A stretch of DNA of 64,000 nt. Source: Dictyostelium discoideum (lineage: Eukaryota). The stretch's first letter is position 1, and each line of letters begins with the position of its first letter. The notes below the pieces were generated by a model. The model searched no databases and was not told the DNA's origin. It saw only the letters and a list, made by a program, of their open reading frames with translations. Of the stretch, positions 1,891-61,114 are shown piece after piece. The stretch is from NCBI GenBank assembly GCA_000004695.1, contig CM000152.2, positions 6,080,001 to 6,144,000 of the forward strand, given 5' to 3'. A program made the position numbers and the translations under genes.

Positions 1891-11580
<9,690 letters not shown>

Positions 11581-30130: not shown

Positions 30131-30283
30131 ATGTCTCAAGTGGATGATGACATTTTAAAGATGATGGAGGGTAATTCCTCTGATTCAAACTTACAATCAC
30201 AACAACAACAACAACAAACTCTCACATTCAATGATGATGATATATTTAACGATCCAATAACTGATGTTACCTCCAACAAATTT

Positions 30284-30321
<38 letters not shown>

Positions 30322-30323
30322 TG

Positions 30324-30415
<92 letters not shown>

Positions 30416-30655
30416 TTAAACAAGATTAATGGCAATGATAATAATATTGACAGACCCAAAATTCCAAGTATACTTTATAAATCAAAATCTATGCCAATAC
30501 AATCTGAAATTAAGCAACAAACAGATATTATTAGATCAACATCCACAGGTACATCCTTAAATTCTACAACACAAACTACAAAAACAATAACAACACCACC
30601 AAGGCCAGTACCATTACCTCCGCCATTAGAAATTAAAAAAACTATACCCAATAAC

Positions 30656-30745
<90 letters not shown>

Positions 30746-31015
30746 CCAATATATAAACCATTACAACCATCATTACCTAAAAGACCGAGTTTACAGCCAT
30801 CCTTACCTAAGAAACCACCTCAAAATATAATAAAACATCAACCAATAGAAATTAGATCTCTTTCCACCCCAAAGAATAACAATAATAGTTACAGTGGAAA
30901 TAATAGTAATAATAATAAAACCAGTGGTGATGGAGTTCAATATACATATGATCCACAAATAGCAGAAACAAGATCCGCATATTTAAAACACCAAAAACTA
31001 AATGATAACAACAAC

Positions 31016-31046
<31 letters not shown>

Positions 31047-31279
31047 ATAATAATAATAAAACAACAGAATGGACAGATTCAAAAAGTAATAATATCAATA
31101 TTAAACAAGTTAAACCTTTTGAATTTGCACCAAGGGATGCATTATATGAAGATTTCGAAACTCCTCCTCCTCCTCAAACATCACCAATAACGCCAAGTAA
31201 ATTATTAGCAACATCATTGTCTAATACAACTTTAAAAACTCCAACCAAACCCTCAACTGTTAATAATAATAATAATAAC

Positions 31280-31314
<35 letters not shown>

Positions 31315-31642
31315 TAATAATAATAATAATAATACTAATAATGACGATGATAATAAATATAGCGATATCAAAGGTGAGCCATCATCATCATCATCATCAC
31401 CATCATCACCATCATCCCCCTCAACTAAAACAACAAATGATGATTATTATGAACCGCCATACGAATCACCTCAATTTGGTTTTAAAAAAAGTTCAACAGT
31501 ATATGATAATGGTATTAATGAAAAGATGTTTTCTTTAAAGAAACCTTTAAAACCTTTGAACAATAATAATAATAATAAAAACAGCAATAATAAAACTAAT
31601 CCTAATCAATTTGGGTTTACATCACATCATTTTAATAAAAAT

Positions 31643-31678
<36 letters not shown>

Positions 31679-32668
31679 TCACCAAAACCACCCAATACTA
31701 ATAACCAAGATGAAGAAATATTTAATATGGATGATTATAATTTCATACCAAAAAAGAAAACTACAACAACAACAACAACCACTACTTCACCAACTTTTAC
31801 TTTAAATTCAAACTCACCATCAAATACACCAAATAAAAAAAAGATAACTCAATTTGTATATGATCCACCAACAAAGAGACCTGATAATACAGTTAATAAT
31901 GAAGATGACAATAATAATCAAAAAAGAGTTCATAGAATTCAAACAGATAAATTAAAAGAACCAAATGGTTTCATTAAAGTTGGTGGATATAATAGTGATT
32001 GTAATTCAATTCAAAGTTTAGAACAATTATATAATCAATTCAAACCAAATATTAAATTAATAATTTGGGGTGTATTCTTTGATAATGATAAAACCAATAC
32101 TAGACCATCACCAACAACAACAAGCAGTACCAAAGAATCTGAAAAAGAAATATCTCATGAACCCTTAGCATATACAATTTGTTTTTTATTAAATGATGGT
32201 ACAATTGATATTAATGATCAATTTGAAATTAATATAAATAGTGGTACTGACAATAATAATGATAATAATAATAAAAAGAATGGTTTAGATGATGAATTCG
32301 AATATATTCAAGCAACAGTATCAAATAAAAAATCATCATTACAATTGAAATCAAACTCGACAAATCAAAAAACGACTATAAATAATTATATATCAAAAAA
32401 GTATTTCATTACAATTTGTGATAATATGGGTGGCAAAATTGAAGAGAAATTAAATTTCATGAAAAATATCATTCAAGATGAATCAATAGTTAAAGTTGTT
32501 TACTTTTGCCAAGAATCAATTAAACCATTCATTAAATATTATGATTGGATTAATTTAAGGAATTGTTGGGATCCAATGATTGGTGCTTGGTTATTAGAAA
32601 GTGACCTTTTATCAACTAAAAAAGTTTCAATTGAATCACTTGCTCATTTTTTAAAATTAAAATCATTA

Positions 32669-32737
<69 letters not shown>

Positions 32738-34510
32738 CAAAATAATAATAATTTAATATTTACAGAAAAAGAATTAAATTATATATTAAAAAGAGAATCA
32801 TTATTATATGATAAAGATAAAGATACATCATCAAATTATAATAACTATCTTTATGATCATTGGTTAGTATTAAAAGTTTATAATGTAATCTCAATTAGTT
32901 TATTCGAATTTGATTTAAATTTCTCATTTTCAAATGAAATGAGATTAATACCGATTCTATCAAAGATGGAATTAGAAGGTATTTGTTGTAATATTGGTAA
33001 ACTGGATCATTATTTAAAAAGAATTTCAGAGTTTACTAAAGAATTAAAAGAAAGTGTAAATAAAGACGATGGCGATGATGATGACGATAATAATTTTAAA
33101 AGATTTGAAGAATTTAAATTAGGATCATTTAAAGAAGTTAGTGGATGGTTAAATCAACATGGTGTAGATATAAAGAGTACAAGTAAAGAAACATTGATTC
33201 AACAAAAAAGATTGAATATAAATAATCAAAAAGTTGTAACATTTATTGATAGAGTATTATTCTATAGAAGATTATCAGCTTTAAAAGGTCACTATATTGA
33301 ACCATACTTGTTAAAGTATACAAATACTACTACTACTACTAAAACTCGTAGTAATACTAATTCAACATTTCAAATCTCTTGTCAATGGAATCAAACTGGT
33401 ACTGCTACTGGTCGTTTATCATCCTCTGAACCAAATCTTCAAACTATTCCAAGAACGTCAACATCATTAATAAATCCAACTACAGCAACAACTACTACTA
33501 CTACTACTTCTACAAATAATGATTTAAATGATTTAGATGATTTAGATGATTTAGATTATAATGGTAATGATGGTGGTTCATTAGATCCTGATTTTATTCA
33601 AGCATTACAAGATGATGATGATAATAATAATATTAATAATAATAATAATAATGATGATGATGATAATATTATAAATATTAGAAATTCATTTATTTCAAGA
33701 GAAGGATTTAGTTTAGTAGTATTAGATTATAATCAAGTTGAATTAAGAATTATTGCACATTTTTCAAGAGATAAACATTTAATTGAATATTTTGAAAGTG
33801 GTAGTGATGTTATTAATATGATGGCAGTTAGATTATCGGATAGAGATGATCTCGATGTAAACAATGTTGATAAAGAAACTCGTGATAGAGTTAAACGTAT
33901 AGTTTATGGTATACTCTATGGTATTCAAGCATTTTCTTTGGGTAAATTATTAAATATACCAATTTATAAGGCATCTGATCATATAAAGAATTTCTATTTC
34001 AAATTTGATGGTGTTTCAAATTTCATACAGATTACAAAATCAAATGCAGAAAAATCTCATGTCGTTCCTACACTTGGTAAAAGAATTAGAAAATTAGATA
34101 GTAAATTTAAAACTAAAGCTGTAAATTCAATAATTCAAGGTAGTTCTGCCGATATCATTAAATTAGCAATGATAACAATAATGAATGAATTATTTTTACC
34201 ATTATTAAATTTAAATTCAAATAATAATAATAAAATACCTCGATTTTTATTACAAGTTCATGATGAATTAGTATTTGAAGTACCAGATGAATATTTAGGT
34301 GATAATTCAATTAGAATGGATCTTTTAATTAAATACCAAATGGAAAATGTTTCAAATTATTTTAATATGTGTGTACCTTTATCAACATCTTTATCCATTG
34401 GCAAAAAGTATGGTTCATTATCAAAAGTAGTCTCTGAAAAAAATCAAGTCGATTTAAAAGAAAATATGGACAACTTTAAACAATTTTTATTTAATTATAA
34501 AAATAAATAA
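30131..34510 (+). CDS. Family A DNA polymerase of Pol theta/nu type (polymerase domain plus degenerate exonuclease-like domain, no helicase), single exon
   Basis: A 1459-aa ORF. Motif A is DYNQVELRIIAHFS. Motif B is RDRVKRIVYGILYGIQAFSLGKLL. Motif C is LQVHDELVFEV. Upstream lies an exonuclease-like region (CWDPMIGAWLLESD) comparable to the inactive exonuclease-like domain of POLQ/POLN. The N-terminal ~550 aa are low-complexity (poly-N, poly-T, PS-rich). Confidence 0.8.
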
Positions 34511-57063: not shown

Positions 57064-58534
<1,471 letters not shown>

Positions 58535-59155: not shown

Positions 59156-61114
59156 ATGGAACCAATTCCAGATATTTCAAAATTAAATATTAATGATTCT
59201 ACTACCACCACCAACACCACCACCAACACAACACCAAATAAAAAACCACAACAACAAAATTCCAAACAAGCACCAAAAGTTGCATTATTAACAGAAGAAC
59301 AAATTAAAAAATGTTTACCAATTTTAAAATGTGAAGTTAAAGATTGTAATATTCAAATGAATTTAGATCACTTTAATAATGGTTTACCAATTCATATGGT
59401 CATTAATAAGGAAACTAATGATTTCGTTATTGTTAAAGTTGATAATCAAGAATTAGAAGAATATCAATTAATTTATTCAGTACCAAAAATTCAATCATTT
59501 AAAAAGGATATTTTAATTCAACAACAGCAACCACAACAACCACAACAAAAATCAGAATCATCAGCAGGTGCTGATGAGGAGAAAGAGGATACAACTGTAA
59601 CAACTGTAACAACTGTAACAACTGTAACAACAACAACACCAACAATTACTAAATTTAATTCATATTATATTTCAAATAAATGGAATGGTATGAATATTCA
59701 AGTATTTAAATATAATGGGGCAGATGGTAAGGTGTATATTAGTGCAAAACCAAGAGCATCACCATTCATTCAAAATGATTTAAAATCTGGACCAATCATT
59801 GATTTGATTAATGAAATATTTTCAAGAGATCAAATTGAAATTACCACTGAAAATGATGGTAATTACTTTAAGGTTACCACTAATTTTAATACTACCACCA
59901 CAACAACAACAACAACAACAACAAATGATGATGATGGTGCAAATACTAATAAATTAATGGTACCAAAATTAATTGAATCATTATTCTTAAAGAAAGAAAA
60001 AGAAATTCAATCAATTGTTTTCGAATTATGTGGTAGCAAATTACCACATATTGTAAAGTATGATTTTGATATTGATTTGAAACCACTCTTTACAATTTCA
60101 ACTCAAGGTGGTTTAATTAAACCAATCATTGACGACAATAGTAGTAAAGATAATGGACAAATTCAATTTGTACAATATGTAAAAATTAATAATAGTGATA
60201 ATAATAATAATAGTGAAGAAGATAATAAAAAATTAATTGAATTAATTGATGAAATTAAAATTAATTTATTAAAAGAGAATCAAGAATTTAGAAAAGTTAA
60301 TGGATTATCAGAGAATATGATTTGGTTTAATCATTTCTTACAAGAGGGTAGAGTATTGTATTTATTGAATGATCAAGGTACTTTGATTAATCATAGACAA
60401 ATCTATTCAATTAAACCAAAGGATGCAGAGAAATCACATTGGGAGCAATTTGATAATGGTATTCAAACTAAACTTTTAATGACCGTTAAAGAGATGTCAG
60501 AGAAGTCAATTACAATCGATAAGGATACCTTGAGAAAGGAGTTGGATTTAGACCAAGTCTCATGGAACCGTCATGAGAATGATATTTGTTCGTTGGCATT
60601 ACCACCAGTGGTTGCAACACCATTATCGAAATCAAAGTTGGTTATCACTTGTGGTCTACCAGCATGCGGTAAAAGTTATTTCGCTCAAGCAATCTCTGAA
60701 CGTTCTTCTGGTGCTTGGAAACGTATCAATCAAGATGATCTTGGCACTCGTAAGAAATGCGAAGATCTCTTAAAACAGTACTTGAAGGCTGGTCATAATG
60801 TTATCATTGATCGTTGTAATCAAGATATCGGTCAACGTAGAAATTGGATTAAATTAGCAGCATCTTTAGGTGTAGCCCAAGTTCATTTGATTTGGTTCAC
60901 AATTGATCAAACCATTTGTAAAGGTCGTATCGTTGTACGTGAAAATCATCCAACCATTCCAAAAGGTGATGAAGGTATTGCTATCATTGATAAATTCCTC
61001 ACAATGTTTGTACCACCTTCTGAATTTGAAGGTTTCGCTTCATTAACTCAAGTTTCAAGTGAACAAGAATCAAATGATTTAATTGAAAAATATATTTCAA
61101 CTATTGATTCTTAA
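59156..61114 (+). CDS. Protein with a C-terminal polynucleotide-kinase-type P-loop kinase domain (PNKP / T4 Pnk / AAA_33-like) and an unrecognised N-terminal region of about 500 aa (single exon)
   Basis: A 652-aa ORF. C-terminal motifs align with the mammalian PNKP kinase domain: LVITCGLPACGKSYFAQ (Walker A), RINQDDLGTRKKC versus NRDTLGSWQRC, IIDRCNQDIGQR versus IDNTNPDAASR, and EFEGFASLTQV versus LAEGFSAILEI. No HAD phosphatase DxDGT motif was found upstream. Confidence 0.6.
   Translation: MEPIPDISKLNINDSTTTTNTTTNTTPNKKPQQQNSKQAPKVALLTEEQIKKCLPILKCEVKDCNIQMNLDHFNNGLPIHMVINKETNDFVIVKVDNQELEEYQLIYSVPKIQSFKKDILIQQQQPQQPQQKSESSAGADEEKEDTTVTTVTTVTTVTTTTPTITKFNSYYISNKWNGMNIQVFKYNGADGKVYISAKPRASPFIQNDLKSGPIIDLINEIFSRDQIEITTENDGNYFKVTTNFNTTTTTTTTTTTNDDDGANTNKLMVPKLIESLFLKKEKEIQSIVFELCGSKLPHIVKYDFDIDLKPLFTISTQGGLIKPIIDDNSSKDNGQIQFVQYVKINNSDNNNNSEEDNKKLIELIDEIKINLLKENQEFRKVNGLSENMIWFNHFLQEGRVLYLLNDQGTLINHRQIYSIKPKDAEKSHWEQFDNGIQTKLLMTVKEMSEKSITIDKDTLRKELDLDQVSWNRHENDICSLALPPVVATPLSKSKLVITCGLPACGKSYFAQAISERSSGAWKRINQDDLGTRKKCEDLLKQYLKAGHNVIIDRCNQDIGQRRNWIKLAASLGVAQVHLIWFTIDQTICKGRIVVRENHPTIPKGDEGIAIIDKFLTMFVPPSEFEGFASLTQVSSEQESNDLIEKYISTIDS

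Follow-up and report, generated by a model that had tools for sequence, protein, structure and literature searches.

The 64,000-nucleotide stretch of the Dictyostelium discoideum genome analysed here (assembly GCA_000004695.1, contig CM000152.2, positions 6,080,001 to 6,144,000 of the forward strand; hereafter the window) contains, at 59156..61114 on the plus strand, one unbroken reading frame from ATG to TAA that codes for 652 amino acids (aa). This gene most probably encodes a bifunctional enzyme for RNA end healing and end sealing, in which an RNA ligase (LIG) from a different, previously unlabelled branch is followed by a polynucleotide 5'-OH kinase (KIN). Orthologues in at least eight dictyostelid species align from Met1 with full-length identities of 40–95%, and full-length orthologues with the same start methionine are present in D. 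discoideum strains, D. citrinum, D. firmibasis, D. purpureum, Polysphondylium, Tieghemostelium, Heterostelium, Acytostelium and Cavenderia; the open reading frame (ORF) is thus a real, conserved gene. A chance origin is unlikely, because ORFs of this length do not arise by chance at the ~20% GC of the window. Between dictyostelid genera, at 40–56% identity, both the LIG-KIN architecture and the catalytic residues are retained. The exact window protein has no match in a collection of 15 billion proteins; the closest database entry is 644 aa long, against 652 aa here, and 95% identical, and the orthologues are annotated as 'hypothetical' in every source. The features of the gene are the following.

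59156..61114, plus strand: complete single-exon LIG-KIN gene, 652 aa, stop codon included (ORF list, translation, full-length dictyostelid orthologues)
59156..59284, plus strand: disordered Thr/Asn/Gln-rich N-terminal tail, aa 1–43 (predicted local distance difference test score, pLDDT, ~25; poor conservation in the orthologue alignment)
59285..59518, plus strand: Rnl1-like N sub-domain, aa 44–121 (pLDDT 96–98; conserved D71, N74, P110 and K111)
59519..59647, plus strand: low-complexity insert, aa 122–164, poly-Q/P and then (TTV)n, a species-specific loop (pLDDT < 50; missing from most orthologues)
59648..60445, plus strand: adenylyltransferase (nucleotidyltransferase) core, aa 165–430
59678..59695, plus strand: ligase motif I, K175-W-N-G-M-N (K175 and G178 invariant in 58/58 relatives)
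59894..59947, plus strand: poly-Thr/Asp low-complexity insert, aa 247–264, a ligase loop (pLDDT < 50; gapped in orthologues)
60020..60034, plus strand: ligase motif III, F-E290-L-C-G293 (E290 and G293 invariant, 58/58)
60341..60361, plus strand: ligase motif IV, Q-E397-G398-R-V-L-Y (E397 and G398 invariant, 58/58)
60407..60424, plus strand: ligase motif V, S418-I-K420-P-K422-D (family consensus K418-x-K420, as Y-K-I-K-P)
60446..60610, plus strand: short all-helical C-terminal sub-domain of the ligase, aa 431–485 (helices 432–449, 456–463 and 467–481 in both structure models)
60611..60631, plus strand: LIG-KIN linker, aa 486–492 (pLDDT < 50 at aa 483–490; length varies among orthologues)
60632..61111, plus strand: P-loop polynucleotide 5'-OH kinase domain, aa 493–652 (Pfam AAA_33, PDB 9drz and 9d8a, similarity to PNKP)
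60653..60676, plus strand: kinase P-loop (Walker A), G-L-P-A-C-G-K506-S507, aa 500–507 (aligns with GSGKST of RazKIN; PMC11571804)
60728..60745, plus strand: phosphoacceptor loop N-Q-D-D-L-G, aa 525–530, with a putative general-base Asp (motif alignment)
60926..60955, plus strand: kinase lid, R591-I-V-V-R595-E-N-H-P-T (RazKIN alignment with a +2 chain offset; PMC11571804)

The domain identities are established from the fold, the motifs, sequence homology and the domain layouts seen in relatives. About 100 of residues 1–500 lie in low-complexity inserts (aa 1–43, 122–164 and 247–264); the two loop inserts at 59519–59647 and 59894–59947 differ even between D. discoideum strains. A preliminary description of the locus had taken the ~500-aa N-terminal region to be of unrecognised fold and suggested structure prediction and fold comparison, which were run and gave a different answer: with the inserts set aside, aa 1–500 are modelled as an ATP-dependent RNA ligase. 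The AlphaFold2 (AF2) model of aa 44–485, built from a 58-sequence alignment, has a pLDDT of 83.5 and a predicted template modelling score (pTM) of 0.79; for this module the deeper alignment supersedes an earlier full-length model from nine sequences (pLDDT 66.5). Foldseek searches of the module against the PDB and against BFVD viral models place only RNA ligases at the top. The fold matches include archaeal Rnl3 (5d1o, 13.6), 3qwu (12.8), 8uce (12.5), Trl1-LIG (6n0t, 12.3), Trl1 LIG-KIN (9r3w, 11.5), 9qw7 (10.9), T4 Rnl1 (9do4, 10.9), T4 Rnl2 (9.8) and NgrRnl (9.5), and all of the top 40 (40/40) are ligases or capping enzymes. The module therefore has the nucleotidyltransferase fold. Its first part, aa 44–121, is modelled as a helix and a four- to five-strand antiparallel sheet; this is the 'Rnl1-like N sub-domain' topology common to Trl1-LIG, T4 Rnl1 and MthRnl (PMC6379707).

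The conserved residues tell the same story. Among 58 diverse family members only P110, K175, G178, Y186, E290, G293, E397 and G398 are invariant, with K420 present in 57/58 and K418 in 54/58, and these positions trace out ligase motifs I, III, IV and V. In the dictyostelid alignment the invariant blocks K-W-N-G-M-N, F-E-L-C-G, E-G-R-V-L-Y and I-K-P form the motif I/III/IV/V pattern of covalent nucleotidyltransferases. K175 is the predicted AMP-accepting lysine, and K111 may be equivalent to T4 Lys75. Motif order and spacing fit T4 Rnl1, with a motif V that is half canonical in the window protein, its first Lys being Ser. The corresponding Trl1 motifs read K-E-N-G (motif I, KxNG) and EGFVIR (motif IV) (PMC6379707). 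Near the helical sub-domain the family alignment also conserves H428-W429 and several L/E/W positions.

Identification of the C-terminal domain as a PNKP/T4 Pnk-type kinase, as the preliminary description had it, is borne out. AAA_33 matches at E 1.3e-14, the mammalian PNKP kinase domain at E about 2e-9 to 5e-10, and the best solved relatives are 9drz (E 7.9e-30, 41% identity) and 9d8a, or RazKIN (E 1.7e-25, 39% identity). NCBIfam PNK-3'Pase (TIGR01663) matches the kinase part only, at E 1.2e-12 and 47 bits against a cut-off of 502.8; Pfam PF08303 (tRNA_lig_kinase) reaches E 0.02 and 15.5 bits, under its 22.7-bit cut-off. A word-indexed search with the kinase alone returned 12 matches. The Walker A sequence GLPACGKS was located at aa 500–507 and the expected IDxxN-type motif as IIDRCN at aa 550–555. 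The substrate loop described as 'RDxLG' is present at aa 525–530, although its letters read N-Q-D-D-L-G; the same six residues occur in 9drz, with NQDDMG in RazKIN and 'NRDTLG' in PNKP, and knowledge of T4 Pnk and PNKP points to a putative catalytic role for its Asp. In the lid, R591 aligns with RazKIN Arg99 and R595 with Arg103. RazKIN is a stand-alone GTP-dependent RNA 5'-OH kinase that performs the kinase step of Mucorales tRNA splicing; its Arg99 stacks on guanine and its Arg103 contacts the phosphates (PMC11571804). The HMMER alignment ends short of RazKIN Ser146, the guanine-reading residue of the beta5-alpha6 loop; the AF2 model places S634-S635 in this loop, and S635 is kept in dictyostelid orthologues. 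The domain thus combines a Walker A motif, an acceptor-loop Asp, lid arginines and significant similarity to proven members, and by analogy with the Mucorales kinases its phosphate donor is probably GTP.

As the preliminary description had stated, there is no HAD phosphatase and no FHA domain: neither HAD, PNK3P nor FHA gives a Pfam match at E ≤ 10, and the idea that aa 1–500 conceal one of these domains was considered and rejected. The related statement that a DxDGT motif is missing holds as well: DxD[GT] strings occur in the poly-Thr/Asp insert and in a helix only.

The ligase belongs to a large family. An exhaustive search of 1.84 billion representative proteins with a dictyostelid profile of aa 44–485 found 467 cluster representatives at E ≤ 1e-3 (309 at E ≤ 1e-10), from phages or phage-like elements, metagenomes and amoebae of at least two supergroups. 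Stand-alone relatives of ~390 aa, retrieved at E 1e-18 to 1e-26, carry a canonical motif I, E-K-x-D-G-T-N. Some of the 58 aligned relatives reach existing ligase models: 13/58 match Pfam PF09414 (best E 2.1e-6), 7/58 PHROG 562, 'RNA ligase and tail fiber attachment catalyst' of the T4 gp63/Rnl1 type (best 1.7e-10), and 6/58 PHROG 548, 'RNA ligase'. Among 119 near-full-length members, 65 are ligase alone, 40 are LIG-KIN, 13 are metallophosphoesterase-LIG-KIN and one is LIG-KIN followed by a 2H cyclic phosphodiesterase (CPD). In this last protein (P0028, 668 aa) the tail at residues ~490–668 has two HxTx motifs and a sub-threshold match to Pfam tRNA_lig_CPD (E 8e-5); judged from these sequence features, it has the complete trifunctional order of Trl1 on a different ligase clade.

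The metallophosphoesterase-LIG-KIN protein P0010 (752 aa) is encoded on a compact phage-like metagenomic contig (L001 8001-10906; also L002 6228-9133), with a stand-alone 146-aa HAD_PNKP phosphatase gene two genes downstream; other genes there code for ThyX, ClpP, a DNA ligase and NAMPT/NMNAT-Nudix NAD salvage. In three independent contigs (L003 2359-4054, L004 1948-3643 and L005 323-2018) the gene for the stand-alone ligase P0156 has a Macro-domain gene directly behind it, which hints at a tie to ADP-ribose or 2'-phosphate (Tpt1-type) RNA-repair chemistry. P0163 (335 aa) lies between two Rnl2-type (PF09414) ligase genes on a 133-kb phage-like contig (L006 3566-8091), giving three ATP-dependent RNA ligases in 4.5 kb, near NAPRTase and NAD synthase genes. 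Such repeated fusions and neighbourhoods are those typical of RNA end-healing and end-sealing systems. A tblastn search of 50,697 GenBank phage records with the P0010 module and P0092 found no match, so the phage-like relatives are known from metagenomes only. Seven uncharacterised 'Rnl1 family' paralogues have been described in Naegleria (PMC4408790), some of which may belong to this ligase branch.

Giant viruses of protists also encode long proteins of several domains, with a ligase part similar to this module, as seen in the BFVD matches to the model: a 738-aa protein of Homavirus, a 'T4 1 superfamily RNA ligase' of Tupanvirus (797 aa), a 'tRNA ligase/uridine kinase' of Bodo saltans virus (891 aa) and a 1039-aa Klosneuvirus protein. 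It is possible that such viruses were vehicles for ligase transfer into amoebae.

The established mechanism of the superfamily suggests how the two domains would cooperate. KIN would move the gamma-phosphate of a nucleoside triphosphate (NTP), probably GTP, to the 5'-OH end of an RNA; LIG would adenylylate itself on K175, pass the AMP to the new 5'-phosphate to give AppRNA, and finally catalyse the sealing of the break, in which the second RNA end attacks through its 3'-OH. We infer the chemistry from this mechanism; the NTP preferences and activity in vivo are likewise predicted, and candidate RNA substrates would be tRNA halves, RNAs cleaved under stress or by a toxin, or spliced exons. Functionally, the protein looks like Trl1 minus its CPD, or like a fused T4 Rnl1 and Pnk minus the phosphatase.

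That a PNK and an ATP-dependent ligase together heal and seal RNA is a classical concept, known from T4, Trl1 and bacterial Pnkp. Comparison with Trl1, the LIG-KIN-CPD enzyme of fungi, plants and kinetoplastids whose ligase forms the 'Rnl6' clade, shows that the window protein has the order of the first two Trl1 modules, and the earlier suggestion that it is comparable to tRNA ligase is apt in that respect. It differs from Trl1 in lacking the CPD/2H domain, ending 12 residues past the kinase; it has no match to the Pfam Trl1/T4 ligase model (E ≤ 10) and only a sub-threshold match to the kinase model; its C-terminal helical module is much shorter and its first motif-V Lys is Ser. The RxxR element that binds the 2'-PO4 in Trl1 (PMC6379707) occurs within 30 aa after K420 in one of the 58 members and not in the window protein, so the sequence gives no grounds for expecting that a 2'-PO4 is required as in Trl1.

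Among solved and characterised proteins, the nearest to the kinase are the Mucorales enzymes MciKIN, RazKIN and LcoKIN (9d8a, 9drz), which have in common with it the P-loop, the NQDDLG and IDRCN motifs and the two lid arginines; the model would also put a Ser at the 'G-loop' position. The Mucorales kinases are free-standing, 163–208 aa long and work beside a separate Trl1-type ligase, whereas the window kinase forms one protein with a ligase from another clade, which precedes it. The signature NQD[DE]LG..RK.C ... IDRCN.D..QR ... R..HPT is shared with the phage-like LIG-KIN members. From this signature, together with the 39–41% identity to the Mucorales kinases and the sub-threshold score of the Trl1 kinase model, the 'orphan' Mucorales kinase may belong to the kinase clade of this family and not to that of Trl1.

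Other systems are more distant in layout. T4 divides the work between two proteins, the ligase Rnl1 (gp63) and Pnkp, the latter with a HAD 3'-phosphatase attached to its kinase, while the window protein is fused and has no phosphatase; the tRNA-binding C-domain of T4 Rnl1 is not evident in it. The archaeal Rnl3 enzymes (MthRnl 5d1o, Palaeococcus 8uce, PabRnl) are stand-alone homodimers with dimerisation and C-terminal domains of their own and no kinase fusion, and no similarity at the level of sequence profiles links them to this family. Bacterial Pnkp (Rnl4, Pnkp-Hen1) also joins PNK and RNA ligase in one polypeptide, and the phage-like relatives described here add a metallophosphoesterase too; however, its order, KIN-metallophosphoesterase-LIG with a Hen1 partner, is opposite to that of the window protein, which has no phosphoesterase and scores E 0.098 against TIGR04075. 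Mammalian PNKP (FHA-HAD phosphatase-kinase) has a homologous kinase, but here the partner is a ligase, without FHA or HAD. On these sequence features the protein is assigned outside Trl1/Rnl6 (no CPD, Pfam membership or RxxR), PNKP (no HAD) and bacterial Pnkp/Rnl4 (opposite order). The branch may yet belong to Rnl1 or Rnl3, clades that are defined by their C-terminal appendages. The OB-like N domain, lack of a C-terminal appendage and match to an NCBIfam DRB0094-type model that mark Rnl5 (DraRnl/NgrRnl) were not found together in the window protein. A Clp1/Grc3-type kinase was considered and rejected, and so was the possibility that the protein is the DraRnl/Rnl5 homologue already reported from Dictyostelium (PMC4408790).

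Several observations weigh against a sealing enzyme at this locus and lend themselves to other explanations. The support consists of models and homology, and the activity of the protein is predicted. No Pfam (E ≤ 10), NCBIfam or PHROG ligase model matches the N-terminal module of the window protein, and searches of PDB chains found no solved ligase: aa 1–491 gave nothing, and the 7- and 58-sequence profiles gave only chance matches to flocculin, ThreeFoil and viral IL-10 (E 0.01–0.08). The same silence of Pfam, NCBIfam, PHROG and PDB sequences over aa 1–491 would speak for a polynucleotide kinase joined to ~500 residues of novel fold, a new kinase architecture, yet this is scarcely credible in the face of the AF2 module model, the fold comparison and the invariant ligase motifs of 58 relatives. 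PNK domains have long been known to pair with RNA ligases, examples being the Trl1 of fungi and plants and the Pnkp of bacteria. The distinct 5'-kinase architecture raised in the preliminary description accordingly has to be given up, since residues 1–500 hold just such a known partner. An hhalign comparison of the family profile with T4 Rnl1 as a single sequence does not reach significance (E 0.056) and served for motif register only; it sets motif III on 'FEF', motif IV on 'IEGYV' and motif V on F-K-I-K, with S418 on the first Lys of the latter. In addition, a Pfam scan finds no phosphoesterase or other 3'-end-healing domain in the window protein, so a 2',3'-cyclic phosphate or 3'-phosphate would have to be opened or removed in trans by a separate enzyme. 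Dictyostelium, moreover, is regarded as an RtcB organism (PMC13247085), and a need for the enzyme in tRNA splicing is therefore not obvious; for that reason a part in RNA repair, or in a reserve or alternative route of RNA joining, is favoured over an essential tRNA-splicing role.

The remaining objection concerns motif V. K418 is replaced by S or A in every dictyostelid orthologue checked, in contrast to the Lys of 54/58 family members, and the K-x-K pair is kept in Balamuthia, Willaertia, EukProt and phage-like members, other amoebae included. In Trl1 the equivalent lysines, 323 and 325, are essential, and each of them contacts the alpha-phosphate of ATP (PMC6379707). With K418 lost, the ligase may be attenuated or altered, and the hhalign register of S418, within its non-significant alignment, points the same way. 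The protein could then be a kinase with a degenerate pseudo-ligase that binds RNA ends or nucleotides and so targets the kinase, or that carries the reaction only part of the way, for example to self-adenylylation or to RNA 5'-adenylylation. This is unlikely, however: K175, G178, E290, G293, E397, G398 and K420 are strictly kept in deeply diverged dictyostelid genera, the pattern expected from selection on catalysis, which argues against outright decay, and K422, on the same strand face in several species, could compensate. The replacement may instead be a lineage-specific change in adenylylation chemistry. A role in DNA repair, in which a PNKP-like 5'-kinase and a nick-sealing ligase would act on DNA breaks with 5'-OH ends, draws on the resemblance to the kinase of mammalian DNA-repair PNKP (E about 1e-9) and on the ability of a Mucorales homologue to phosphorylate both DNA and RNA 5'-OH ends in vitro (PMC11571804), but we consider it very improbable. 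The interpretation as a bifunctional RNA-healing and RNA-sealing enzyme is preferred.

A wider proposal is more tentative, and we regard it as possible rather than probable: the ligase clade, with its ~470 representatives, would lie between the Rnl1, Rnl3 and Trl1 types, would have been fused repeatedly to a kinase of the Mucorales KIN type, and would give dictyostelids a second, 5'-phosphate ('yeast-like') RNA joining pathway beside the assumed RtcB. If so, the dictyostelid K418S replacement might change adenylylation chemistry or its regulation, and the 'orphan' tRNA-splicing kinase of Mucorales would derive from the kinase of this family and not from that of Trl1.

Healing and sealing by a kinase and a ligase is not a new principle; the finding lies in the functional annotation and in a family missing from domain databases. 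What is still new is a ligase branch unseen by Pfam, NCBIfam and PHROG in the window protein, carried everywhere under the label 'hypothetical', and a LIG-KIN enzyme without CPD. No paper on the LIG-KIN protein or the ligase branch was found in the literature, although Burroughs & Aravind (NAR 2016) may already list the branch. The annotation proposes a concrete and testable function for a protein that all dictyostelid genomes label 'hypothetical', and does so in a model organism amenable to genetics; a widespread RNA-ligase branch missed by domain libraries would mean that RNA-repair capacity is under-annotated in phages and protists. A natural LIG-KIN without CPD may also help to ask how 3'-end healing comes in trans and whether 5'-phosphate ligation coexists with RtcB, and the family would set the RNA kinase of Mucorales, a recent discovery and a candidate antifungal target, in an evolutionary framework.

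The LIG-KIN gene is flanked by typical Dictyostelium nuclear genes, and contamination or a foreign insert was rejected. The window carries genes for a Piezo homologue, for SPT16 and for a family-A DNA polymerase, with a Pex2/10-like RING gene directly upstream of the LIG-KIN gene. The family-A DNA polymerase domain (E 1.4e-72) forms the C-terminus of a 1459-aa ORF at 30131-34510 on the plus strand, whose N-terminal ~1100 residues have no Pfam match at E ≤ 1e-4. The upstream neighbour, at 57226-58534 on the minus strand, resembles a Pex2/Pex10-type peroxin; its Pex2_Pex12 N-terminal ORF (57869-58534) and C3HC4 RING ORF (57226-57588) are probably split by a short AT-rich intron. At 1891-9948 on the minus strand, a 2685-aa ORF encodes a homologue of Piezo-type mechanosensitive channels, with Piezo cap, anchor and THU domains at E values down to 2e-78.

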